Positions 1 through 10,474 of a stretch of 12,487 nucleotides of DNA are shown here, in pieces (within the stretch, counting starts at the first letter, position 1; each line of letters starts with the position of its first letter). The notes under the pieces were generated by a model. That model saw only the letters and a list, made by a program, of their open reading frames with translations, did no database searches and had not been told where the DNA came from. The stretch lies in the UHGV virus genome UHGV-0355038, one strand, 5' to 3'. Both the position numbers and the translations under genes were made by a program. The stretch comes from a virus.

Positions 1-106
1 CATAGCCAAAGGTGCCTGTGTATTTTTTTGAGTTTCAATTATTGCATTTCTCACCAGCGGTGGTAGTGCATATATCGGATAAGGATTTTCTGGTGCAAGT
101 AAGCAC
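1..106 (-). CDS. small hypothetical protein, N-terminal part only (runs off window start); paralog of the 357..584 ORF
   Basis: Minus-strand translation from the ATG at 106..104 gives MCLLAPENPYPIYALPPLVRNAIIETQKNTQAPLAM..., open to the window edge. A GAGAGG Shine-Dalgarno-like motif lies about 5 nt upstream. It shares the pattern PYP.YA.P...NAIIETQ.N..A.LAM with the 75-aa ORF at 357..584. Not in the ORF track because it is partial. Confidence 0.35.
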
Positions 107-143
107 ATAAAAGCCTCTCTTTTCATTAATGGGTTAGTAAAGT

Positions 144-179
144 AGCAGCAACTCCCGCTATAATAGCGAAATAGCTGCT
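144..179. promoter_or_regulatory. palindromic operator-like site upstream of the first small-gene copy
   Basis: AGCAGC (144..149) and GCTGCT (174..179) flank a central palindrome CGCTATAATAGCG that contains a TATAAT -10-like hexamer. It is the counterpart of the better-preserved site at 620..656. Confidence 0.3.
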
Positions 180-356
180 GTTCAGACCTAATGTTCTGAG
201 AAATACAGAATATCTGTAGATCTGATGTTTAATAAACCGATAAGGTTAATTCAGTTCATACTGTGTTATTTACCACGAAATATCATTCATGTTTCTCATT
301 CTTAACACCTCCTAAAATTATTTCACTAACACCTTCCCCCCGGTCTTTTTCCTTTC

Positions 357-584
357 TCAGGAATCAGCCAGAACCATAGTGTAAATATTAACGGGCCCAC
401 GTAAATTTCCGGGGTTGCACACGTCAATCTGATTCTGACAGGCAATTGACATCGCTGTTAATAATGATGTTGTAGTCATAGCCAGAGATGCTTTTTCATT
501 GTGTTGAGTTTCAATTATTGCATTTCCAGTCATTGATGGTTGCGCATATACTGGATACGGAGTATCCGGTTTGATGTAAGACAT
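357..584 (-). CDS. small hypothetical protein (75 aa), tandem paralog of the partial ORF at 1..106
   Basis: ATG start with an AAGGA Shine-Dalgarno motif about 8 nt upstream (minus-strand sense ...AAAAAAGGAAATATTTATG). The N-terminus MSYIKPDTPYPVYAQPSMTGNAIIETQHNEKASLAM aligns with the copy at 1..106. A palindromic operator-like site lies about 36 bp upstream. Confidence 0.45.
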   Translation of the reverse strand: MSYIKPDTPYPVYAQPSMTGNAIIETQHNEKASLAMTTTSLLTAMSIACQNQIDVCNPGNLRGPVNIYTMVLADS

Positions 585-619
585 AAATATTTCCTTTTTT
601 CGTAATAACTTTCGGTTAT

Positions 620-656
620 AGCAGCTATTTCCGCTACAATAGCAACAATAGCTGCT
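620..656. promoter_or_regulatory. perfect 10-bp inverted repeat operator-like site (AGCAGCTATT / AATAGCTGCT), 17-bp spacer
   Basis: AGCAGCTATT at 620..629 and AATAGCTGCT at 647..656 are exact reverse complements. The spacer TCCGCTACAATAGCAAC holds a TACAAT -10-like hexamer. The site sits between the small ORF start (584) and the AlpA-like gene end (690). Confidence 0.4.
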
Positions 657-689
657 ATACAGACTGGATATACTGAAAATACAGACAGT

Positions 690-917
690 TCATCTGGTCT
701 GTATCCAGCAGAGAAGGTCACTTAACAACCATCCGCAAGATTTCTTTCCGATAGACTTACGTGGTGGAAATGTTCCCTCCCGTTCAAGTTTCCACGCTTG
801 TGTACGAGAAATTGACGTGATCTCATATCGTTCCTTTTCACGTACCAGTCTGTCGCATTCAATCCCATAAGCTTTCAAAATGACCAGACGCTGTTCATCT
901 GTTAATGGAAGCCACAT
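690..917 (-). CDS. AlpA-family (phage Vis/AlpA-like) helix-turn-helix transcriptional regulator
   Basis: The track ORF 690..938 begins with a TTG codon. An internal ATG at 917..915 is preceded by a perfect AGGAGG Shine-Dalgarno motif at 5-nt spacing, so I place the start there (75 aa, MWLPLTDEQ...). The C-terminal segment ITSISRTQAWKLEREGTFPPRKSIGKKSCGWLLSDLLCWIQ matches, from memory, the AlpA pattern (S.STiyR...G.FP..+.+G.+s.gW...ei..Wi). Confidence 0.6.
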   Translation of the reverse strand: MWLPLTDEQRLVILKAYGIECDRLVREKERYEITSISRTQAWKLEREGTFPPRKSIGKKSCGWLLSDLLCWIQTR

Positions 918-1608
918 ACTACCCTCCTGATATATCAATACTTTTTATTTCCGGCATGAGCATGAAATGACTAAGTTTCCCGGATAAACAATGAGTGAAA
1001 GTCACTATCATTCATCCAGCCAACACCTTACAAATAAAATGTAATACTATGATTTTTATAGGTCAAAATACTGAATTGAAATGTTAAAATGGCTTTTAAT
1101 AGAAAAAATAAAGACATATAGAACCAAATAAAAACAAGCCGCGACCAATAAAAACAAAAATTAATATTAAAAATCCATTATGACGATTTTTGTTGACTAA
1201 AATTAGGTTGGGATATATAAATAAATCCATGTGAAATTCAAACAAAGCATGGAGGAGTCGCAGGAAGGTGAAATATTTCCATCTAATTTGTGATAATCAT
1301 CACAAAAATAAGCTACAACAAGCGGAGGAAAAGACAATCTGTTGCTGAACAGACAGAAGCAGGCTACGAATGATCGGAAAATGAAGCAAATACGCTTATA
1401 CAGAAGACGCAGGGGTAACTGACGGAGACAATCACAATCAGGAGAAAATGATCGTAAATAATGTATAAAATCTCAGGATATAAACAAATGTACACAAGCT
1501 ATCCACGTAATCTGCGGCTGGCTCAGGATTAACGTTTCATTTCAGTGGACGACATCGATTCTGTCTGACAGTGGGCCAATATGTGGCAAGCAGAAAACTT
1601 CTGACATC

Positions 1609-3240
1609 ATGGTAACTCGGACAATGCAACAAAAGTATGATCGTGTTTTATCTGGCGAATCCCACCCATTCCCTGGCATATACGAGGCGGTTTCCGAACA
1701 ACTCCTTTTGCTCATCTTTAAGGCTCGTCAGCTATATCAGAATCCAGAATATCGCCCCTGGTTTGAAGAACAGCACAGAGTTCTCTCTGCATTACGTGCT
1801 AATACAGAGCTCTTGAGAATATTTAGAGAACAAAGAAACGCGGAAGAACCAGAGCTTATTATTAAAGAATCTACATTACCCCTACTCACTAATTCTAATC
1901 TTACAGATGCGCTTAATATTATGTGCCATTTATACAATGGTTTTGATGAAGGAAATATCAGTCTGAAAACCTGGGGGGCGATGCAAGAGGTACAGACAAC
2001 ATCAACCTTTATCAGCCCGGGACCGAGAACCTGGAAAACACCTGAACTGGCAAAGTTTGTAGGAGATGATTTATTTAATATTCTGACTGAATGTAAAGCC
2101 TGGAGTTCACCAATTCCAGCAGAAACCCGACAGGGCTATTGCCATCAGGATCTGTCTGTTGCACACTCCTGCACCTCAGAGTTACTGGCACACCTGAATC
2201 AATACCATGAAATTGATGAATCAGCAATACTTGCCAGAGTTATTGGTATGACGGTTAACGGATTCTACAAGAAAAATAATACAGACCTCCCAGAATGGCT
2301 ATCCCCCTTTAAAGAGGAACATAAAATATTCAGAGATTGTCTGGAGCAAAAGACCGAGGATGTAATCAGACTGAAAGAACAACTGTTGAAAACAGGACGT
2401 TCAGAATTCGTGAATAATTTGTGTCGGGTCGCCAACTGGTATGAAATTAAGTCAATATACGATGAATATGTCCGTCTTTATGCCAATGAAATCATTGGTT
2501 GGTTCAACAAAACCATGGAATATTTTAAACCAACAGATTTTATCCGATATACATGGAAATTCGCAACAGTTACTCCAGATAAAGAGACAGAAACCAAGCA
2601 TACAACTGCATGGGAAAAGGATTATTGCCAGATAACTATACAACGTGATGAACTTCTGAGATTGATTCACACGAATACCCTTCAGGATGCAGTAATTTAT
2701 CTTTGCCATTGCCTGCAGAAGAAATACAAGAAATCATCCCAAAATGAGATAGAGTTTCCAGGAATAAAACCTCCGGCATCAGAGAGTGAAATTAATATAA
2801 CAGATAATTTTGAATTTTATTCTCTCCTGGAGCTCAGTAAAGATAATGAGAGGCGGCTGGAAACATTTCAAAAATGGTATGAAAAAAATAAAGTTTTGTT
2901 AGAAAGTCATAAACAAAAACGAACAGAGAAGATTGACGTTGCCGTACGACTTGTAGGGCTGAAAGCCTATGATCTGCATGAAGGGATTCCGGATAGTCCA
3001 AAACGAAAAGTTAAAGATGGCATAAATGAAGACATCAAAGCCGATACCAGTTTACGCCTGCCAAAGACAAATATAAGTGATACGTCGCTAAACCGTTATC
3101 GCCGCACTGTTAAGGAGATTATCAATAACGAAATCGACGCATTCCTGTTGGAACAGAAGAAAAAAAATAAAAGATTTCCCTACAGTGAAGATAGAGATGT
3201 GATTCGACCTTTATGGGGAAAATGCCTGACCGGGCAGTAG
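1609..3240 (+). CDS. hypothetical protein, 543 aa, no family recognised
   Basis: Long uninterrupted ORF; antisense ORFs inside it are short. A terminator-like hairpin follows the stop. No Walker A, HExxH or other motif I can name with confidence. The start is ambiguous between ATG 1609 and ATG 1624 (no strong Shine-Dalgarno for either). Confidence 0.65.
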   Translation: MVTRTMQQKYDRVLSGESHPFPGIYEAVSEQLLLLIFKARQLYQNPEYRPWFEEQHRVLSALRANTELLRIFREQRNAEEPELIIKESTLPLLTNSNLTDALNIMCHLYNGFDEGNISLKTWGAMQEVQTTSTFISPGPRTWKTPELAKFVGDDLFNILTECKAWSSPIPAETRQGYCHQDLSVAHSCTSELLAHLNQYHEIDESAILARVIGMTVNGFYKKNNTDLPEWLSPFKEEHKIFRDCLEQKTEDVIRLKEQLLKTGRSEFVNNLCRVANWYEIKSIYDEYVRLYANEIIGWFNKTMEYFKPTDFIRYTWKFATVTPDKETETKHTTAWEKDYCQITIQRDELLRLIHTNTLQDAVIYLCHCLQKKYKKSSQNEIEFPGIKPPASESEINITDNFEFYSLLELSKDNERRLETFQKWYEKNKVLLESHKQKRTEKIDVAVRLVGLKAYDLHEGIPDSPKRKVKDGINEDIKADTSLRLPKTNISDTSLNRYRRTVKEIINNEIDAFLLEQKKKNKRFPYSEDRDVIRPLWGKCLTGQ

Positions 3241-3248
3241 ATCACTGA

Positions 3249-3280
3249 GGGGATAACAGCCCGGTTATCCCCTGTTTGTT
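3249..3280 (+). terminator. intrinsic terminator-like hairpin between convergent genes
   Basis: GGGGATAAC (3249..3257), loop AGCCCG, GTTATCCCC (3264..3272): a perfect 9-bp stem. It is followed by TGTTTGTT and starts 9 nt after the stop of the 1609..3240 ORF. Confidence 0.5.
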
Positions 3281-3326
3281 CTGCTTCAGGTTGCCAGAGC
3301 TCCAGGAACACGAGGCAATCGGCAAA

Positions 3327-3923
3327 TTATGCGGCTTTTCCATTAACAGATTCGGCCACAAGAACAACACCGTGTTTGTTTCGATCAGGATGTTCACTCC
3401 AGATTTCTGATTCAGGAATGCTTTCCCCATCATAGCAGATCCGATCACCATCAAACGGATAATACCGTGCGGAATCTGTAGCTAAGATAAACACCTTAAG
3501 ATTCGTTGAACGACGCGCTATATGCTGCCAGAGGGCTTTACCTCCTTCATATTGCTCGTTATCACTTAATAGTATAACGCCTGCTTTTGTGGCTATTGTT
3601 TCATAAACAAACGTAGCAAGGCTAACATCACGTACAGCACCATCGACAACAATCCCTTCAATCTGAGCAACGTCCTGTTCTTCCCAGAATTTCCGGACAA
3701 ACACCCCTTCAAGTCGGGGACGACGCTGAAGCTCCAGAGTGGCAACAACCTTATGGCGAATATCACCATCAATAACAGAAGGTGCAGCTTCGATTACCGC
3801 AGCGAACGGAGTCTTTGGATCCCAGATGATCTGGTAAAGCACACCCTGAATAGTTACTCCATCCAGTATCGAAAAACGACGAGCTACAGTAGCAGGGGAG
3901 TAAGACATTGGAATGACAGCCAT
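3327..3923 (-). CDS. hypothetical protein, 198 aa, no family recognised
   Basis: ATG-initiated ORF on the minus strand, convergent with 1609..3240. The composition looks like a real globular protein (e.g. ...IATKAGVILLSDNEQYEGGKALWQHIARRS...). I could not assign a fold by eye. Confidence 0.6.
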   Translation of the reverse strand: MAVIPMSYSPATVARRFSILDGVTIQGVLYQIIWDPKTPFAAVIEAAPSVIDGDIRHKVVATLELQRRPRLEGVFVRKFWEEQDVAQIEGIVVDGAVRDVSLATFVYETIATKAGVILLSDNEQYEGGKALWQHIARRSTNLKVFILATDSARYYPFDGDRICYDGESIPESEIWSEHPDRNKHGVVLVAESVNGKAA

Positions 3924-4233
3924 TTTATGGCCTAAAATTTGAAAACATCAGTATCAATACTGACCTCATCAGTCTGAGCATATATTGATAAAGTTTTTAT
4001 GTTTACACTCAATAAATACCTTACCAAACAACTAATAGCGATGTCTACATTGCCATTCGACATGCTTACAATTTTTGTCAACAAGAAAGTGAATTTATAT
4101 CAACGGTAAGAAGTAAACACGAGGACACCAAAACCAAATGTACACACTTTTGTGCTTTGTGTCCCCTGTGTGTACCCAAATGACAAACTGCAAGAAAATC
4201 TAGGCACACACTTATCTAACTTATTGATTTAAA

Positions 4234-4279
4234 TGGTGCCGATAATAGGAGTCGAACCTACGACCTTCGCATTACGAAT
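4234..4279 (-). repeat. 46-nt 3' fragment of a tRNA gene (most likely tRNA-Thr CGU, thrW-like): integration-site (att) repeat
   Basis: Minus-strand sense reads ATTCGTAATGCGAAGGTCGTAGGTTCGACTCCTATTATCGGCACCA: anticodon loop with CGT, variable loop, T-arm GTAGG-TTCGACT-CCTAT, acceptor 3' strand TATCGGC, discriminator A and CCA. The sequence 5' of it (GGATTCTTATA) does not continue a D-arm or acceptor 5' strand, so this is a partial copy and not a gene. Confidence 0.65.
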
Positions 4280-5026
4280 TATAAGAATCCGCTTCTAATT
4301 CAAAGTATTACCCCATCAACACTGTGCTCACACGTCCCACCACATCAAAACATGTAAAGCCTTGCAAGCCATTGTGAGGCCTTATGTGTCTCAGTTTTGT
4401 CCCACCTTGTATTATGACTTGCATAGCCAATGAAGATAAACGTGACGACAAACAGCGCAGCAGTCTTCTTTTCTTTCACACTTTCCCCAATCAGCATACA
4501 TACTTTCTACCATAACTGTAGTGAATGTCTGTTATGAGCGAGCAAAAGAGATTCAATTACCGGGGAATTACTCCGACATAAGCTCTCCCAGAAACACCGG
4601 AACAGCGATTCGCATATTCTCTTCTATACTTTCAGTCTGACCGGCTGGAGATTTCATAGCAAGAAAATGGATGAGCCAAGACCTATGCGGGAAAGAGGCT
4701 GAGGAAATAATTGCCGATAGCACTGTGCCCGACGAAAAGTTAATCTGGCACGCAATGACGCGCGTCCTTGGGGCATCAGGAATCAGAGAGCCAACTTAAC
4801 AACCCATTATATATTATTTAACCGGACTGTTACATGTACAAAGTTCAATGATTAGTGATTCTGTGACGCCACATACAACCTAAGCCCCTGATATAAAACC
4901 AGTCTATGCAACACCTAAAAATCATATATGATAGGGTGATAAGTCAACGCGCAGTATAAAAATTAAGCTAAAAAATGCTTTCAGCATAGTGAATCTATTT
5001 CACACTACATAATTAAGGATGAAAAA

Positions 5027-5872
5027 ATGACTGCACCAGTAATTAGTTTTATCAATATGAAAGGTGGGGTTGGTAAAACAACTTTATGCGTTGGGATTGC
5101 TGAGTTTTTAGCCAACCATATGGGGCGCAAGGTTCTAGTTATCGATATTGATCCTCAATTTAATGCCACTCAGTCCTTAATGGGGCATTATGATCGAGTA
5201 GAAGAATATATGACTGCCCTTCGCCCTAATAATCAAACCATTCGAAAGATTTTTGAGCTTCCAAATTCATTAATGGAAGATGAAAAGAAAGTGACACCAG
5301 AACAGGTCATTACTAAAGTTTCAGACAATCTTGATATTATCTTAGGTGATATAAACATTATCTTTGATACTAACCAAGAGGGTATTAGAATAAAAATGTT
5401 GCGTAAATTCATCACCGAAAATGACTTAAAAGAAAGTTACGACTATATCTTTATCGATAGCCCCCCAACAATCTCATTATTTACAGATACCGCACTCCTT
5501 GCTTCTGATTATTATCTTACTCCGGTTAAAATTGATCACTACTCGGTGCTTGGAGCAAGCAGTTTAAATAGCGTTATAAGAAATATGCGCACACATCATG
5601 AGAAAGAAATCAAGCAAGTCGGTTACATTTATACAAACACTGATGCTGAAATGACCAATAAAACAAGGGAAATTAAAGAACAATTCGAAAACCATACTCA
5701 ATTTACAAATTTTTATTTCTTTGAAAATCAATTAACCTACGTGCGTGATTTAATGGTAGGTTATCAAGGAAATATTCCTTCTTGTTATTCAAAGTCACGC
5801 CAAGATATAGAAAAGATCTGTAACGAATTTATTAACAGAGTGGCTCACTTGGAAGGTAACACAAATGAATAA
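5027..5872 (+). CDS. ParA/MinD/Soj-family P-loop ATPase (deviant Walker A)
   Basis: AAGGA Shine-Dalgarno motif 7 nt upstream of the ATG. N-terminal INMKGGVGKTT (deviant Walker A KGGxxGK[ST]), VIDIDPQ (typical ParA DxDPQ motif) and a hydrophobic Walker B-like IFIDSPP. 281 aa, no N-terminal HTH extension. Confidence 0.75.
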   Translation: MTAPVISFINMKGGVGKTTLCVGIAEFLANHMGRKVLVIDIDPQFNATQSLMGHYDRVEEYMTALRPNNQTIRKIFELPNSLMEDEKKVTPEQVITKVSDNLDIILGDINIIFDTNQEGIRIKMLRKFITENDLKESYDYIFIDSPPTISLFTDTALLASDYYLTPVKIDHYSVLGASSLNSVIRNMRTHHEKEIKQVGYIYTNTDAEMTNKTREIKEQFENHTQFTNFYFFENQLTYVRDLMVGYQGNIPSCYSKSRQDIEKICNEFINRVAHLEGNTNE

Positions 5873-6263
5873 ACAATTAATTAAAGCGCTCAATAAAGCT
5901 AATAATATGCCCATGACCAAAGAAAACTTCTTAGGCTTGGTAATTATGTTGATTCTTTCAAAAGAGGTTTTTAGATCAAATTTTGATGTTAGTAAATTTA
6001 TTAACAAAACCTTCAAAATATCTTTTTTGAATTATGCTGTACGGTCAAGAACTTTGATGTGCGCTAAAATTTGCAGACATATTAATGAATTAAGTGAGAA
6101 TGACATAAAGATGGCTTATACGCATTTCTTAAACAACATTAACACATTAGACATTATTTTTAATGATGCAAATAAAACAAGCCAAAAACCCACATCTAAA
6201 AGCAAGCATGCTATAAGGAATTTAAATATTTGGATTAATGCAAATAAAAAGGAAGAAGAATAA
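5865..6263 (+). CDS. hypothetical protein, 132 aa, Lys/Asn-rich, no family recognised
   Basis: ATG overlaps the upstream stop by 8 nt (ATGAATAA). A GGAAGG Shine-Dalgarno motif lies about 8 nt upstream. Very AT-rich codon usage shared with its neighbours. Confidence 0.6.
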   Translation: MNKQLIKALNKANNMPMTKENFLGLVIMLILSKEVFRSNFDVSKFINKTFKISFLNYAVRSRTLMCAKICRHINELSENDIKMAYTHFLNNINTLDIIFNDANKTSQKPTSKSKHAIRNLNIWINANKKEEE

Positions 6264-6928
6264 TGCTCACGCAGGATCCCTTCAACATTGGAAGAGATGT
6301 AAATTATTTTAGAGCGGAGGTGCAAAAGCACCTCAGAACCACTGATGAAATAAACAAATCAGTATCAATATTTAGGCAAATAAGTCTTTGTAATACAATT
6401 TTAAGTCACAATCCTAATCTAAATCACTCTTCTTATATAAAAGGTTTTATATATGATACCTTAAACTCCTTAATTGCCATTATAAAAAAAAGAGAACGGT
6501 ATCTCCAACTGAACTTCCGCTCAATGGTGGAGCATGTGGCCAGAATAAGCCTCAATAAGAACTACAATGGTGGGGATTTTGACCAAACTGTACGTCGTAG
6601 AGACTTTGACTTCTTAAAAGCCCAACAAGTCGATGAAGGCTGGTCTTATTTACATAATGTCTATATCAACGCCTGTTATTATGTTCACTCCTCCCCCCAA
6701 GCGAACCTAAATGTTACATCAACATTTATATCACTTATGGAGGGAGATTGTAATTCAACACAGCATAAAATGGTGAAAAAACTTCATGAGGTAGTATCGG
6801 CGCTGATGAGAATCATTATAAAGTATTATCATCAGCATATCTCAAACATTTTCTTTAGAAACAAAAAGGATTTAGAGAAAATAATGGGAAAAAGCCTTTA
6901 TTCATATTATACCAGCTTAGACAATTAA
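6263..6928 (+). CDS. hypothetical protein, 221 aa, no family recognised (speculative HEPN-like R-x4-H motifs)
   Basis: Start overlaps the upstream stop by 1 nt (TAATG). An AAGGAAG Shine-Dalgarno motif is upstream. It contains R-x4-6-H strings (RSMVEH, RIIIKYYH) that could be coincidental. Confidence 0.6.
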   Translation: MLTQDPFNIGRDVNYFRAEVQKHLRTTDEINKSVSIFRQISLCNTILSHNPNLNHSSYIKGFIYDTLNSLIAIIKKRERYLQLNFRSMVEHVARISLNKNYNGGDFDQTVRRRDFDFLKAQQVDEGWSYLHNVYINACYYVHSSPQANLNVTSTFISLMEGDCNSTQHKMVKKLHEVVSALMRIIIKYYHQHISNIFFRNKKDLEKIMGKSLYSYYTSLDN

Positions 6929-6965
6929 TTCTCTCATATTCATTGCGTAGAGCATAAATATCTAT

Positions 6966-7461
6966 CTAACCACCTAAAATGCCAGAAAATCTAGTTGTAT
7001 ACCGGTGCGAAAATATCTCGCGTTTCATCTGCCACTGCTGCTGAATGCCCTGCCCAGCGAAACAGAGTGTTTCCTTCCCGTCTTTTGCATTGAGGTGCTC
7101 CAGCACGCTCATTAACTTTTCGCTCCCAGGACCCAGCGCGTTATCGTCGAATAGGTTAGGGCATGCTCTGACTGAAGAAGTCCCCCAGCATTACCCCGGC
7201 TTTCTGATATCGGTGTCCGTCTTTCCATATTGCATCCAGACTCCCCGTTGCTACTGCAATGATATCCCGACTGTCCTGTGTCGGGATGAGCAGCTTCACC
7301 GACGCGCTGTTACAGTAGTACGACTCGTTCAACGCAAAGGGTATCGTGTAAAACCGATGATGACACTGCCGGCAATCAGCACTGACGTCAGCAAACGTGA
7401 GAAAGAACAGATAAGCCGAACGATTTAGGAAATGTTTGAAGAGACTGATATGTGGATGGTT
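6966..7461 (-). pseudogene. umuC: umuC-like Y-family translesion polymerase gene, 3' remnant, frameshifted and 5'-truncated
   Basis: Minus-strand translation gives ...FYTIPFALNESYYCNSASVKLLIPTQDSRDIIAVATGSLDAIWKDGHRYQKAGVMLGDFFSQ. After a frameshift near 7160..7175 it gives NLFDDNALGPGSEKLMSVLEHLNAKDGKETLCFAGQGIQQQWQMKREIFSHRYTTRFSGILGG-stop. This matches my recollection of the UmuC C-terminus (...HRYQKAGVMLGDFFSQ...NLFDDNA...GQGIQQQWQMKR...PRYTTR...). No intact ORF remains, and the upstream extent (possibly to about 7790) is uncertain. Confidence 0.6.
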
Positions 7462-7858
7462 TCAGTTTAAACGCCTTGAACCGTCATATTACCTAAGTAC
7501 AATCCGCTGTGACTGGCAATCATTCAATACTTGCACTATCAAAAGTGCATCAGCCAACCGCAGCACGTCTTGCATACGACCTGTCTGCGGTTTCAATCAC
7601 CTCTCACCACCAGTCCCATCAATAATAATTAAACAGCGCCTAAACAAAATAAATAACAACAAGTCAACAACCTCGACAGGATGCCGATGGGATGATGAAG
7701 AGATAAGAAAGAATAACTAGTAAAGCCCTAAAACGTCAGCGTTCAGACGCGTTTTTTACTTAACCGGTAACAAATACGTTGTATCATAGCAACATAAAAT
7801 GATTGTTCTAAATCAGATTAACTCCTCACTTTTGTACAATGTCGCTTACAGGTATACC

Positions 7859-9748
7859 ATGAAATCCGAGACGCTAACTGTCCAACAACTTTTTCAAGAC
7901 CGCCGACAATACTGTGTTCCATTCTATCAACGTGCCTATGTATGGACTCAGCGAAACCAATGGTCAGCTCTACTGGAGGATATCCTAGAGAAAGCACAAT
8001 CCCGGCTCTCGGGTACAAAACCAACTCCCCATTTCCTTGGTGCAGTGGTACTGGAACCTCAACCAAAAAAAGGATTATTCGGTGTAGATTCCATACATAT
8101 TATTGATGGTCAGCAACGATTGACCACTCTTCAATATGTTCTGGCATCCATCCGATTAGCATTACGTGCGACAGATCTTTCCAACTTAGAGCCTCTCATT
8201 TCGTCTTGCCTGAAAAACTCAAACGAAGACACAATGCGAAATAAAGAAGTAGAGCGCTTCAAACTGTGGCCAACTTTTCGGGATCAAACTCATTTTATTC
8301 AAAGTTTTAATGTTGAAAATATTGACGATATCCGGAATGTATTCTCTGATAGTTTCACGCAGCATGGTACGTTGCGTAAGCATTTTAATCACCCGCCATC
8401 ACTAGAAGCATTATGTTTTTTTACTGAAGCCTTTATAAAGTGGATTAAAATAGAAAATCACTCACCACGAGAAAATGCTGTAGCATTAATTGAGGCTGTC
8501 TTGACGGATCTGAAACTAGTAAGCATATTTCTCGAGGCTGAAGATGACGCTCAAATAATTTTTGAAACATTAAATGGCAGAGGTGCGGAACTTCATGCCA
8601 CAGATCTTATTCGCAATTATATTTTTATGTGCGCTGAACATGAAAATATTAATGCTGTTGAATTATATGAGAATGAGTGGAAGATCTTTGAAGATACGTA
8701 CTGGTCAGAAAGACAACGTCGTGGTCGTATTAATAAACCACGCATGGAGTGGCTAGTGCATGCAACATTGCAATCAGAAAGGCAACGTGAAATCGATCTG
8801 TCTCGTCTTTACAATGAGTATCGTGATTATGTAAGTAAGGACTTGCCTTCACAACGAGCAGATCTGCAAGTAAAGCGCCTCAAACAATATGCATCACAAT
8901 ATAAAGAATTGGTTGGTGGTTTTGGCACAACCCCCATCTCACACTTTGGACATCGCATCGCAGCCTATGATGTGACGACACTTTATCCGCTTGCTTTGTT
9001 CATTTCGATAGCTAACATCGCCGATGATGAGAAAGCAGCCATGTATAATGATCTTGTCTCCTACGTAGTACGAAGAGCCGTATGTGGCCTGACGCCAAAG
9101 AATTACAACAATGTATTTATGAATGTATTGCGGCACTTGTCTAAAACAGAAATTTCCAGTGTTGAGTTACGTAATATCCTCAATAGCTTAAATGGCGAAG
9201 CCTCACGTTGGCCTGGGGACTCAGAATTTCTCAACGCTTGCATCAATGCTCCACTTTATCCTGGCAGGCTCGACGCACCGAAAATGCGCTCAATGTTAAC
9301 GGAACTTGAAAGAGAACTTTGTCGCCAAGTGAAGACAGAGAAGCCTGATGTTCCAAATCTTTCTAACCTCGATATCGATCATCTTATGCCTCAAAGTTGG
9401 TATTCCTGTTGGCCTCTCGAAAATGGTCATATAGTGACAAATTCAGATGCTACGGTATTGAACCAAATTGTTCTGTCTGGAACCGATCTTACCCCAGAAC
9501 AGCTACTGGTAAGGAAACGGCAACAAGCGATAGCTACGTTGGGAAATCTAACTTTGCTTAACCTTAGCGTAAACCGTTCTGTTCAGAATGCTGTATTTCT
9601 GAAAAAACGTGATGCTCTCATCGTCCACACCAATCTACGACTGAACATTCCACTTATAGTTAAGGATAAATGGGATGAGGATGAAATCCTGGAGCGGGGT
9701 AAAAAGTTGGGGGAAATTGCATTGAAAGTATGGCCAAAACACGATTAA
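7859..9748 (+). CDS. GmrSD-family putative type IV (modification-dependent) restriction endonuclease: N-terminal DUF262 (ParB-like NTPase) plus C-terminal DUF1524 (His-Me finger nuclease)
   Basis: N-terminal YCVPFYQRAYVW and IIDGQQRLTTLQ (the DGQQR signature of DUF262). C-terminal LSNLDIDHLMPQSW (DUF1524-like D-H..P.S nuclease motif). The track ORF starts at ATG 7799; I prefer the in-frame ATG at 7859 (AGG 9 nt upstream; the conserved block then starts near residue 18), but 7799 is possible. Confidence 0.75.
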   Translation: MKSETLTVQQLFQDRRQYCVPFYQRAYVWTQRNQWSALLEDILEKAQSRLSGTKPTPHFLGAVVLEPQPKKGLFGVDSIHIIDGQQRLTTLQYVLASIRLALRATDLSNLEPLISSCLKNSNEDTMRNKEVERFKLWPTFRDQTHFIQSFNVENIDDIRNVFSDSFTQHGTLRKHFNHPPSLEALCFFTEAFIKWIKIENHSPRENAVALIEAVLTDLKLVSIFLEAEDDAQIIFETLNGRGAELHATDLIRNYIFMCAEHENINAVELYENEWKIFEDTYWSERQRRGRINKPRMEWLVHATLQSERQREIDLSRLYNEYRDYVSKDLPSQRADLQVKRLKQYASQYKELVGGFGTTPISHFGHRIAAYDVTTLYPLALFISIANIADDEKAAMYNDLVSYVVRRAVCGLTPKNYNNVFMNVLRHLSKTEISSVELRNILNSLNGEASRWPGDSEFLNACINAPLYPGRLDAPKMRSMLTELERELCRQVKTEKPDVPNLSNLDIDHLMPQSWYSCWPLENGHIVTNSDATVLNQIVLSGTDLTPEQLLVRKRQQAIATLGNLTLLNLSVNRSVQNAVFLKKRDALIVHTNLRLNIPLIVKDKWDEDEILERGKKLGEIALKVWPKHD

Positions 9749-10000: not shown

Positions 10001-10474
10001 ATGCCATTTGCGCGCTATTTCTGCATTTTCATAAACGTTCAATTGGGAGAAGCGGCAAAACGGGATGTCGGAACCGGTAATAATCAACTCCCGGACATGT
10101 CCGCATTTGGTATGTCGCGAAACGGACAAACTGCCTGGGATATTCTCCCAAATGGTATGATTCGACAGGTTGGTACTGTGACACTGACGCCTGTTGGTAA
10201 TTTCAACGCAATTACTCTTGGTGGAGTGCTGTACTACACCCATTACTACAGGGTTAATTTCCCCAGACAATTCCCAAATGCACAAATAGCAACGCTGGCA
10301 ACACTAGCGAGTTACAGCTTTTCGACCCAGTCATCAATGGCTGGGAAATCACTGGCAACGCATCGCGATACTGATTCTGGCACTGACGTATCAAGAACGC
10401 GATTCACTGTGTCGTATACGACACCCAATCTCGGCGAAATTCCGACTTTGCATTTTGAAGCAATAGGATACTAA
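10001..10474 (+). CDS. alternative tail-fibre C-terminal (receptor-binding tip) cassette, S'-like, inverted relative to the expressed fibre gene
   Basis: 157-aa ORF; the frame is open from 9977. Its beginning ...INVQLGEAAKRDVGTGNN... parallels ...NALQLGTAATRDVGADNA... inside the minus-strand fibre gene, and both end in A(I/L)GY. The cassette has no obvious promoter or Shine-Dalgarno motif of its own. Confidence 0.55.
   Translation: MPFARYFCIFINVQLGEAAKRDVGTGNNQLPDMSAFGMSRNGQTAWDILPNGMIRQVGTVTLTPVGNFNAITLGGVLYYTHYYRVNFPRQFPNAQIATLATLASYSFSTQSSMAGKSLATHRDTDSGTDVSRTRFTVSYTTPNLGEIPTLHFEAIGY

Follow-up and report, generated by a model that had tools for sequence, protein, structure and literature searches.

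The window, i.e., the whole 12,487-nucleotide stretch of UHGV virus genome UHGV-0355038 that was analyzed, begins with an alpA-yfjI junction (positions 1..940, Table 1) that belongs to an E. coli integrative island of the CP4-57 type, located at the thrW tRNA site, and positions 1..4279 of the window are identical to NZ_CP080139. The first gene of the alpA -> yfjI unit is alpA. An AlpA-type regulator had been named in the original prediction as the neighbor of a duplicated small-protein module, and this assignment was borne out by a match to PF05930 (Phage_AlpA, E 2e-13; 50.4 bits against a cut-off of 21) that covered model positions 1-51 of 51. Between alpA and the left edge of the window lie two copies of the start of yfjI with its upstream palindrome, designated copy A (left edge, palindrome pal1) and copy B (next to alpA, palindrome pal2).

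Table 1. Features of the alpA-yfjI junction, in window coordinates
Feature	Position	Strand	Details
yfjI codons 1-36, copy A	1..108	-	WP_000335705.1 in NZ_CP080139; gene continues past the left edge
yfjI leader with Shine-Dalgarno GAGAGG	109..142	-	from sequence
pal1	143..180	.	sense strand CAGCAGCTATTTCGCTATTATAGCGGGAGTTGCTGCT; dyad 53 nt upstream of yfjI ATG
Upstream flank common to both copies	181..209	-	aligns with 657..685
Spacer between remnant and pal1	210..312	-	seen only in this context
Mini-ORF MRNMNDISW	Shine-Dalgarno GGAGG 312-308, ATG 299-297, stop 272-270	-	conserved block
yfjI pseudogene, copy B	313..584	-	homologous to codons 1 to about 92; PGAP incomplete
Open frame of the remnant, 75 codons	357..584	-	closed by GGT-to-TGA at codon 76
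Remnant leader with Shine-Dalgarno AAGGAA	585..616	-	from sequence
pal2	617..659	.	13-bp perfect arms TATAGCAGCTATT / AATAGCTGCTATA around GTTGCTATTGTAGCGGA, sense strand
Short flank, alpA stop codon to pal2	660..689	-	shared with copy A up to 685
AlpA-family helix-turn-helix gene, 75 aa	690..917	-	PF05930 E 2.1e-13; PGAP WP_000266639.1

The duplicated segment and the intact yfjI

A gene start is duplicated head-to-tail together with the palindrome that precedes it; the original prediction had described this repeat, and it was present where it had been placed. In a local alignment of 1..330 against 331..760, positions 1..209 paired with 476..685, with a score of 125, compared to a mean of 20.0 (sd 2.6, maximum 35) for 300 dinucleotide-preserving shuffles. 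The period is 476-477 bp, and families of direct repeats were spaced by 476, 477 and 476 bp. When the left flank beyond the window edge was taken from an identical genome (L001), the repeat proved longer than the window shows: copy B (313..685) matched copy A from 209 down to -163, with 363 aligned pairs, 81% identity and 20 gap positions. Two head-to-tail copies with significant similarity make this a tandem duplication, which is not strictly contiguous because about 100 nt of unique spacer separates them. The peptide motif common to both open frames is real as well, and purine runs resembling Shine-Dalgarno sites precede both start codons in the sequence. The 10-bp arms reported for the palindrome at 620..656 are perfect, and perfect pairing reaches 13 bp (617-629 / 647-659). 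It is highly likely that the locus holds two yfjI copies, one intact and one a stump, each with a conserved palindromic element, and no finding spoke against this identity of the open frames.

Copy A had been taken for a small gene. It is instead codons 1-36 of a gene of 477 residues that is cut by the window edge: PGAP annotates in NZ_CP080139 a 'YfjI family protein' (WP_000335705.1) of 477 aa ending at window position 108. The full protein matched PF13148 (DUF3987) with 288.8 bits over model positions 1-363 of 364, and the complete domain of copy A lies only outside the window. DUF3987 has been described as a predicted helicase located between PriCT and winged-helix domains (PMC5862659). An AlphaFold2 model of YfjI (mean pLDDT 89.9) had MCM2-7, archaeal MCM and ComM as its top Foldseek matches (E 2e-5 to 1e-3), and residues 406-477 were modeled as helix-strand-helix-helix-strand-strand after a disordered linker. 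The yfjI product is thus predicted to combine an MCM-like AAA+ helicase fold with a C-terminal winged helix. A sequence search detected no YfjI relatives in PDB, and an NCBIfam search gave no hits. Toprim, PriCT or Prim-Pol domains occurred in longer YfjI homologs; YfjI itself, unlike P4 alpha, has no primase domain.

A truncated yfjI copy and the spread of the arrangement

In identical genomes, copy B is labeled by PGAP/RefSeq as a pseudogene, 'DUF3987 domain-containing protein, incomplete, missing C-terminus'. Its 75-aa open frame matched PF13148 with 34.7 bits, above the gathering cut-off of 27 bits, at model positions 2-45 of 364 only, and a complete DUF3987 domain (about 364 positions including the P-loop and AAA+ core) was not found in the 357..584 copy. 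Both protein and DNA alignments showed that homology to yfjI runs beyond the TGA to about codon 92, ending just after a Walker-A-like SGERKT motif, i.e., the P-loop of the AAA+ fold. Because homology continues past the stop codon, the second open frame must be closed by a nonsense mutation, where a gene end had been supposed. With a match confined to model positions 2-45, a frame closed at codon 76 and homology lost near codon 92, the 357..584 copy is a DUF3987 fragment and not a functional member of the family.

Conservation of the small open frame in related elements, which the original prediction had set in advance as a measure of its own claim, was not seen; stops at codon 15 or indels interrupt it. 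Lesions seen in other lineages are early stops at codon 15, an insertion of 1 nt and deletions of 10 nt and 12 nt; the frame of the O157, ABU83972 and XD35 lineages is either shifted or closed at codon 15. All remnant copies have one truncation junction in common, and the lesions are lineage-specific. Differences among fragment copies by codon position ([15,7,7], [17,7,8] and [10,11,8]) had no third-position excess, and neither purifying selection nor a kept frame was found for 357..584 in related elements. Omega between copies A and B was intermediate (0.6). The remnant leader changed in 9 of 32 columns in three lineages and is not conserved, and the proteins returned by the 75-aa query were only 47-94 aa long. 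The stump has evidently been decaying neutrally, and differently in each island lineage, since one founding event.

That the locus encodes two paralogous proteins of about 75 aa, each with its own palindromic operator, as a duplicated autoregulated module is hardly credible, although 357..584 is here open for 75 codons behind a Shine-Dalgarno site and an ATG and a protein database cluster holds 65 sequences 99% identical to the 75-aa frame: one frame is the start of a 477-aa gene, and the other a truncated pseudogene copy whose homology outruns its stop codon and ends at the P-loop, whose frame is closed or shifted in the three lineages above, whose differences show no third-position excess, and whose leader and Shine-Dalgarno site are not conserved. 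Should the palindromes be operators, or the locus autoregulated, the regulator would not be a 75-aa protein. The correction is the main gain, as an apparent duplicated small-protein gene turns out to be a stump that RefSeq already flags as incomplete.

The spacer, and hence the layout alpA - remnant - spacer - yfjI, was detected in about 1338 of 5426 complete E. coli genomes. Every match covered at least 80% of the query and always spanned both junctions, and no similarity to the spacer was found elsewhere in the islands or in other E. coli contexts. Islands without the remnant also exist (L004 and K-12 CP4-57). The spacer includes a mini-ORF whose block changed in 3 of 47 columns (P 5.5e-5 against the pseudogene background). 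Because all remnant copies have one junction, the arrangement goes back to one old event. Either two related islands recombined in this founding event or a partial duplication arose in tandem, and the remnant was accordingly either captured from a diverged island or duplicated in situ. Searches for an intact parent of the remnant found no intact yfjI more than about 81% identical in complete E. coli genomes, and only the same arrangements in IMG/VR.

Sequence and conservation of the palindromic element

All alpA -> yfjI islands that we examined have a palindromic element of about 40 bp before yfjI. The class present in the window has a core of nested GCTATT/AATAGC hexamers with a conserved center, the four GCTATT-type hexamers being arranged -> -> <- <-. 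The element is centered 52-60 nt upstream of the yfjI start codon, to which its distance is constant, and the dyad of pal2 likewise lies 53 nt upstream of the remnant ATG. Hexamer spacing varies by 1 nt between subtypes, and the A+T content of the flank is 63-77%. We found the element in K-12 CP4-57, Mangrovibacter, Yokenella, Cedecea, Serratia, Tenebrionibacter and IMG/VR contigs; a pattern scan of IMG/VR for the palindrome gave 46 hits, mostly chance, about 17 of which were true alpA-yfjI junctions. Enterobacter and Citrobacter islands have at the equivalent position an unrelated perfect palindrome with 16-bp arms and, in the Enterobacter type, a loop of only 4 nt; among more distant yfjI genes, only this Enterobacter/Citrobacter type had an informative upstream region. 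No further copies of the element were detected elsewhere in the islands, and no palindrome was found before yfjI genes that are preceded by yfjJ instead of alpA.

The palindromes of the original prediction thus hold up as conserved cis elements: many islands have them before yfjI, and they have changed less than the pseudogene beside them. Across three lineages, pal1 changed in 4 of 42 columns (P 0.001) and pal2 in 5 of 43 (P 0.003), compared to 84 of 274 in the pseudogene; the leader of the intact yfjI (7 of 33 columns in three island lineages) did not differ from the pseudogene background. Both palindrome copies are kept in about 95% of the islands of the window's family. Because pal2 is still conserved before a dead gene, its function would be independent of translation of the adjacent open frame. 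A hexamer palindrome conserved from K-12 CP4-57 to Serratia and Mangrovibacter, and still conserved beside a dead gene copy, is a lesser but positive finding. The low divergence near yfjI could partly reflect recombination tracts instead of selection.

In an alignment of the K-12 type, 94.9% of cells were paired, yet no pair had changed on both sides, and 5 of 8 loop columns were invariant; it appears that the sequence of the element is conserved rather than its pairing. Covariation support for a structured RNA was absent from a small sample of 10 sequences (0 of 10 pairs changed on both sides). Rfam searches gave no match at the gathering score, the sole match with E <= 1 being a spurious plant miRNA (E 0.2), and no P4-like CI/C4 immunity RNAs. 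The -10-like hexamers reported within both palindromes are present (TATAAT at 159-164, TACAAT at 636-641), but they lie on the plus strand, opposite to the genes, and lack a -35 element; a scan of 1..1300 for sigma-70 promoters (-35/-10 with 16-18 nt spacing) detected none at 143-180 or 617-659 on either strand. Neither palindrome is followed by the T-run of an intrinsic terminator. A LexA-box-like CTG-N10-CAG upstream of pal2 was considered and dropped, its spacing not being conserved in other lineages.

Possible functions of the palindromes and comparison with known systems

Tentatively, and with real doubt, we regard the element as a putative sequence-specific cis site of the island's replication module. 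This module would consist of the YfjI helicase and the neighboring YfjJ, which has HUH-endonuclease-like motifs (invariant H-u-H and Y-x-x-K); K-12 YfjJ matched YagK_YfjJ_C and REP_ORF2-G2P in Pfam. The element may serve for loading or nicking in the manner of an origin, may be the operator of yfjI, or may combine the two roles. Its class does not follow YfjI similarity: K-12 YfjI is 53% identical to the L076 type, which has a different palindrome, and only 43% identical to the window type, which has the same hexamers. Similarity of the winged-helix region correlated weakly with palindrome class, in the expected direction (36% vs 43% identity), and islands with the element in common have YfjJ proteins of only about 20% identity. 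Two direct copies of a rolling-circle nick site would be expected to promote loss of the intervening 476 bp, and their retention in about 95% of the islands of this family therefore argues against active nick sites of this kind. A more elaborate proposal, in which a functional cassette, and not debris, is made up of pal1, pal2 and the mini-ORF, the palindromes being putative loading or nicking sites of the YfjI/YfjJ module, seems unlikely. If true, it would mean a previously unstudied replication module on CP4-57-type defense islands, in which the duplication would supply two sites to an origin or control region, as ori and crr do in P4; the duplication could also tune Rho-dependent silencing of yfjI. 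The palindrome, together with MCM-like YfjI and YfjJ with its HUH motif, is a testable candidate for the origin and replication machinery of these islands.

An alternative that we consider possible, if on the improbable side, is that the palindromes fold into hairpins in an RNA transcribed across alpA and yfjI, where they would be a barrier in processing or stability or would modulate Rho termination before yfjI; the duplication would then place two hairpins in series. Stable hairpins can form on both strands; those of the sense strand reach -28.1 and -24.2 kcal/mol (z -3.6 and -3.0), and, owing to G-U pairs, folding favors the sense over the antisense strand in 13 of 19 variants. Single-side changes, tallied by hand as a test for RNA, were about 6 sense-wobble and 3 antisense-wobble, which favors neither reading. 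The alpA-yfjI interval contains no promoter-like site, and transcription of K-12 yfjI, measured from a far-upstream start, is strongly Rho-terminated. A strong Rho-dependent terminator was reported upstream of K-12 yfjI, with a supplementary value of 45 for yfjI that we read as fold change (PMC9160355). A hairpin would also tolerate the 1-nt variation in hexamer spacing more easily than would a rigid protein dimer, a different palindrome with perfect 16-bp arms holds the equal position in Enterobacter and Citrobacter islands, and the lack of a palindrome at yfjI genes without a preceding alpA fits a role in alpA-to-yfjI read-through at least as well as an origin. However, compensatory double changes are absent, three pairs departing by mismatches only, and in several variants a change on one side leaves the sense strand with an A-C mismatch. 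Moreover, loop and stem are about equally conserved, a hairpin does not need four hexamers of one sequence, the absence of a U-tract speaks against an intrinsic terminator, and no Rfam family matched.

The duplication would also lengthen the stretch from alpA to the functional yfjI by about 476 nt of leader, most of it untranslated. Given the strong Rho-dependent termination of K-12 yfjI, we infer that this extra leader would lower read-through into yfjI.

It is improbable that the duplication is a neutral relic without consequence, in which the conservation of pal1, pal2 and the mini-ORF would reflect recent recombination tracts and not selection. The sample amounts to three independent lineages, and identity between lineages steps up toward yfjI (alpA unrelated, fragment 73-93%, yfjI 97-100% between L001 and L005), which shows a mosaic history. 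However, pal2 lies at the far, divergent end, between flanks that changed by 28-31%, and is nevertheless little altered; the mini-ORF block changed by 6%, compared to about 9% for yfjI 5' coding sequence (24 of 276 nt) in the same lineages; and the palindromic element is conserved between genera.

Still less probable is that the palindromes are AlpA operators from which AlpA controls yfjI. They lie immediately downstream of alpA, and AlpA-family proteins are DNA-binding regulators and excisionases, a role established for CP4-57 AlpA and P4 Vis. However, the GCTATT-type element follows three AlpA classes that are 26-47% identical and differ in their helix-turn-helix, an AlpA with a near-K-12 helix-turn-helix (59% identity overall) precedes the unrelated palindrome, and the motif is absent near the integrase, although AlpA acts on int expression, and elsewhere in the islands. 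As judged by these comparisons, any protein that binds the palindrome is very probably not AlpA.

Among the closest known systems is K-12 CP4-57, which has the same gene order (AlpA-family -> DUF3987 -> YagK/YfjJ) and is likewise an island at a tRNA/tmRNA site with defense cargo. Its palindrome has the same hexamers (CTGCTATTTCCGCCATTAATAGCGGAATAGC) and lies 60 nt upstream of yfjI; the window type has extra outer arms (AGCAGC/GCTGCT) and a center one nucleotide shorter. Unlike the window, K-12 has a single copy with neither remnant nor spacer, and the proteins of the two islands have diverged (AlpA 27%, YfjI 43% and YfjJ about 21% identical). CP4-57-type islands carry anti-phage cargo: that of K-12 has AbpAB, and the islands analyzed here have Zorya and TOTE remnants.

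Origins served by initiator helicases, such as the GAGGC pentamers of SV40 large T antigen, the papillomavirus E1 sites and the ori/crr iterons of phage P4 alpha, resemble the junction in the short identical repeats, inverted within a palindrome of some 30-40 bp; in the AT-rich flank; and in a neighboring gene that encodes an AAA+ helicase, for which a separate winged helix is predicted. Repeated short inverted sites beside an AT-rich tract are indeed found in the window. The likeness would be one of working only, and the repeat sequence in the window does not clearly track the phylogeny of the YfjI winged helix. Likeness to HUH rolling-circle origins includes the H-u-H and Y-x-x-K motifs of YfjJ and its REP_ORF2-G2P match, as well as repeated hexamers and a stem whose AT-rich loop is conserved; the differences are the two stably kept direct copies and the 4-nt loop of the Enterobacter type. 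Two further candidates were rejected. The element loop has TTAATAG.GGA in common with the M13 nick site, but likeness to an Ff (M13/f1) gpII-type origin is probably due to chance, as gpII (Phage_CRI, G2P_X_C) and YfjJ belong to different Pfam families. PIME mobilizable elements are a different family, with repA and trb genes (bioRxiv 10.64898/2026.01.12.698999).

Finally, the remnant resembles other 5' gene remnants that recombination leaves in mosaic islands and prophages, in which a truncated 5' copy with its upstream region lies beside an intact paralog, with lineage-specific lesions, neutral substitutions and a PGAP 'incomplete' label. The region is, in this sense, an ordinary partial duplication carrying one mildly interesting putative control site. 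It differs from such remnants in being unusually persistent and widespread, occurring in approximately one quarter of complete E. coli genomes and in lineages 12-15% diverged, and in that the embedded pal2 and mini-ORF change far less than the rest.

A repeated yfjI start and its decay

The genes of 1..940 were all on the minus strand, and the head-to-tail repeat proposed for this region was borne out. A local alignment paired 1..209 with 476..685, the spacing of direct-repeat families was 476-477, and the alignment score was 125, compared with 20.0 +/- 2.6 (maximum 35) in 300 dinucleotide-preserving shuffles. Once the left flank of an identical genome was added, the upstream copy reached from 685 down to 313, with 81% identity over 363 aligned positions. 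The homology crossed a TGA at 357-359, which stands in place of a GGT glycine codon, and ended near codon 92. A unique spacer of ~100 nt (210..312) links this truncated copy (stump) to the region upstream of intact yfjI. The original prediction of a small-protein module had to be abandoned, since one ORF is the start of the 477-residue yfjI and the other an incomplete DUF3987 pseudogene (table below). In Pfam searches, the 75-aa ORF aligned with the 364-position DUF3987 model at positions 2-45 only, full YfjI spanned that model end to end, and ORF 690..938 was Phage_AlpA. The window is E. coli chromosome: 1..4279 was identical to strain PK8241, and strain Ec-2977 was 99.3% identical to the whole window.

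Features of the island, with the fraction of alignment columns changed among three lineages of stump-bearing islands (binomial P versus the pseudogene)
Feature	Coordinates	Strand	Columns changed	Remark
'YfjI family protein', 477 residues	start codon at 108, leaves window leftwards	-		RefSeq annotation
Palindrome before intact yfjI (pal1)	143-180		0.10 (P 0.001)	
Mini-ORF, 9 codons, MRNMNDISW	ATG 299-297, stop 272-270; whole feature 270..312	-		
Shine-Dalgarno GGAGG	312-308	-		strong; spacer between stump and pal1
Stump, pseudogene 'DUF3987 domain-containing protein, incomplete, missing C-terminus'	360..584	-	0.31 (coding sequence)	RefSeq annotation; background
Stump leader			0.28 (not significant)	
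Palindrome before stump (pal2)	617-659		0.12 (P 0.003)	
Helix-turn-helix gene	690..917	-		RefSeq annotation
543-aa ORF	1609..3240			divergent from alpA
198-aa ORF	3327..3923			strand opposite to 543-aa ORF
YagK/YfjJ family gene after yfjI	PK8241 locus (L001) 3134..3697, left of window			K-12 yfjJ: K-12 locus (L008) 7548..8174

Of 5426 complete E. coli genomes, 1338 had the spacer, O157:H7, ABU 83972, Nissle and ATCC 25922 among them; each match extended over 80% or more of the query, and the spacer turned up in no other context in these genomes. The stump was absent from the islands of CFSAN027350 and K-12 CP4-57. Stump copies from three diverged lineages shared an identical truncation junction but differed in their damage: a stop (TGA or TAA) at codon 15, an insertion of 1 nt, and deletions of 10 and 12 nt. 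Differences among them were distributed evenly across the three codon positions (15, 7, 7; 17, 7, 8; 10, 11, 8), unlike intact yfjI copies, among which omega was 0.23-0.35. When proteins were searched with the 75-aa sequence, all matches were short (47-94 aa). The arrangement therefore goes back to one old event, after which the stump has decayed; the window has its least decayed version. No intact relative of the stump was found in complete E. coli genomes, the protein search or IMG/VR. Between lineages, intact yfjI was 97-100% identical versus 73-93% for the stump, and alpA was sometimes unrelated; the islands are therefore mosaics, and their recombination joints lie close to the palindromes. 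Such mosaicism ordinarily yields stumps of this kind, and RefSeq already flags this one.

Conserved elements upstream of yfjI

The palindromes also proved real: pal2 has perfect 13-bp arms (617-629 and 647-659), and pal1 has a weaker outer pair flanking a perfect CGCTAT-A-ATAGCG. On the gene strand, both are variants of AGCAGCTATT..GCTATT.TAGCGG..AT.GCTGCT, which consists of four GCTATT-type hexamers, two forward followed by two inverted. The dyad is 52-53 nt upstream of the ATG in the window type and 57-60 nt in the K-12 type, and an A+T-rich leader comes after the element. The same core was found between alpA and yfjI in K-12 CP4-57, in islands of Mangrovibacter, Yokenella, Cedecea, Tenebrionibacter, Serratia and another Escherichia species, and in ~17 IMG/VR contigs (form given as CTGCTATTTCYGCYATTAATAGCGGAATAGC). 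The motif was not found elsewhere in the islands, and the element had no Rfam match. Islands of Enterobacter kobei and Citrobacter werkmanii, whose AlpA recognition region is almost the same as that of K-12 AlpA, had an unrelated palindrome with perfect 16-bp arms, TATCAGTTGTGATGCC-ATTT-GGCATCACAACTGATA, in the same alpA-yfjI position (loci L076, 1924..1959; L085 and L086, at about 624..659). What is conserved here is position and symmetry rather than sequence.

Judged from column changes in pal2 and the stump coding sequence, pal2 is maintained although the ORF behind it is dead. The mini-ORF block was also conserved among the three island lineages, with 3 of 47 columns changed versus 84 of 274 for the pseudogene next to it (P 5.5e-5); the changes were one nucleotide between the Shine-Dalgarno motif and ATG, a synonymous AAC/AAT, and TAA/TGA. 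This mini-ORF could be a leader peptide counteracting Rho, or a remnant of another gene. With modest probability, the palindromes and mini-ORF mark the control region or origin of a replication system of such islands that has not been studied before.

A predicted replication module and the role of the palindrome

Genes associated with the element make up a predicted replication module. AlphaFold2 modelled YfjI with confidence (mean pLDDT 89.9). Among solved structures, MCM-type AAA+ helicases were closest in fold, and the model had a separate C-terminal domain of winged-helix topology. Longer homologues contained Toprim, PriCT or Prim-Pol primase domains, and DUF3987 has been described as a predicted helicase sited between PriCT and winged-helix domains (PMC5862659). 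The YfjJ family, which is always found with yfjI (other lineages have the two genes in either order), has invariant H-u-H (HYHLIL or HIHFIG) and Y-x-x-K (Y-[LFM]-[AT]-K) motifs like those of HUH rolling-circle endonucleases, and K-12 YfjJ scored above the Pfam REP_ORF2-G2P cut-off. These motifs and the predicted YfjI fold suggest that CP4-57-type islands may encode a nickase-plus-helicase replication module.

The tie to helicase-like YfjI and HUH-like YfjJ favors, tentatively, a palindrome that would act as a cis site of this module, as an origin-type loading or nicking site, a yfjI operator, or both. Both copies were also predicted to fold stably as RNA, and the main alternative, a hairpin acting on the alpA-yfjI co-transcript, would fit the location of K-12 yfjI behind one of the strongest measured Rho-dependent terminators (PMC9160355), the absence of a palindrome before yfjI genes without a preceding alpA, the 1-nt variation in hexamer spacing between subtypes, and a sequence class that does not clearly track the YfjI winged helix. 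However, the K-12-type alignment had 0 compensatory pair changes, three pairs departed by mismatches only, and loop conservation was about equal to that of the stem, which argues for sequence-specific recognition and not pairing alone; we consider the hairpin unlikely. An AlpA operator is also unlikely, since the same element stands behind AlpA proteins only 26-47% identical to each other, and the Enterobacter/Citrobacter AlpA with a near-K-12 recognition region precedes an unrelated palindrome. The -10-like hexamers noticed in the palindromes were on the plus strand, opposite the genes, and consensus scans detected neither a sigma-70 promoter nor an intrinsic terminator there. The duplication has put ~476 nt of RNA, most of it untranslated, and another copy of the element between alpA and the working yfjI, and should raise Rho-dependent polarity on yfjI.

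Island flanks and known relatives

Positions 4234..4279 (46 nt) are identical to the 3' portion of the tRNA-Thr gene (thrW) annotated at 10234-10309 of the PK8241 locus; ARAGORN found no tRNA in the window. This segment looks like an att-type repeat between the island and a second element. The window departs from PK8241 at 4280, and matches to other genomes begin at about 4217-4233; two elements thus lie in tandem at thrW. An integrase gene was missing between the 198-aa ORF and the repeat (3924..4233), and the same island in ETEC4068, at another chromosomal site adjoining nfeF, had a tyrosine integrase there (L002, 10058..11374 region). The window's island may be unable to excise alone. Within 939..3923, alpA and the divergent 543-aa ORF are 670 nt apart, with A+T-rich sequence between them. 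The 543-aa and 198-aa proteins had no match in Pfam, NCBIfam or PADLOC; in several islands, their ORFs accompany this alpA type as conserved partners.

Region 5027..9748 is the end of a neighboring lambdoid prophage, where several genes precede a remnant of a pin invertase and the tail-fibre genes. They encode a ParA-like ATPase (AAA_31, E 8e-38), ORFs of 132 and 221 aa with no family match, remnants of umuC-like and DinI genes, and a type IV restriction enzyme, GmrSD (PADLOC mREase_IV, 1436 bits). The ATPase and the two ORFs could form an uncharacterised defence or partition cassette. Cargo beyond yfjJ varied among near-identical islands (left flanks L001 1..2818, L002 1..1571 and L003 1..5982): PK8241 and Ec-2977 had NERD-kinase and TOTE primase remnants broken by IS21 and IS66, and ETEC4068 had a type I Zorya system and an otherwise intact yfjI copy split by IS2.

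A literature search turned up no publication on the palindrome or on what yfjI does, and the element is therefore counted as an as yet undescribed case of a well-known type, a site with inverted repeats before a replication gene. Among known systems, the CP4-57 alpA-yfjI-yfjJ module comes closest, and this island is a diverged member of that group that differs in having the extra 5' yfjI stump.
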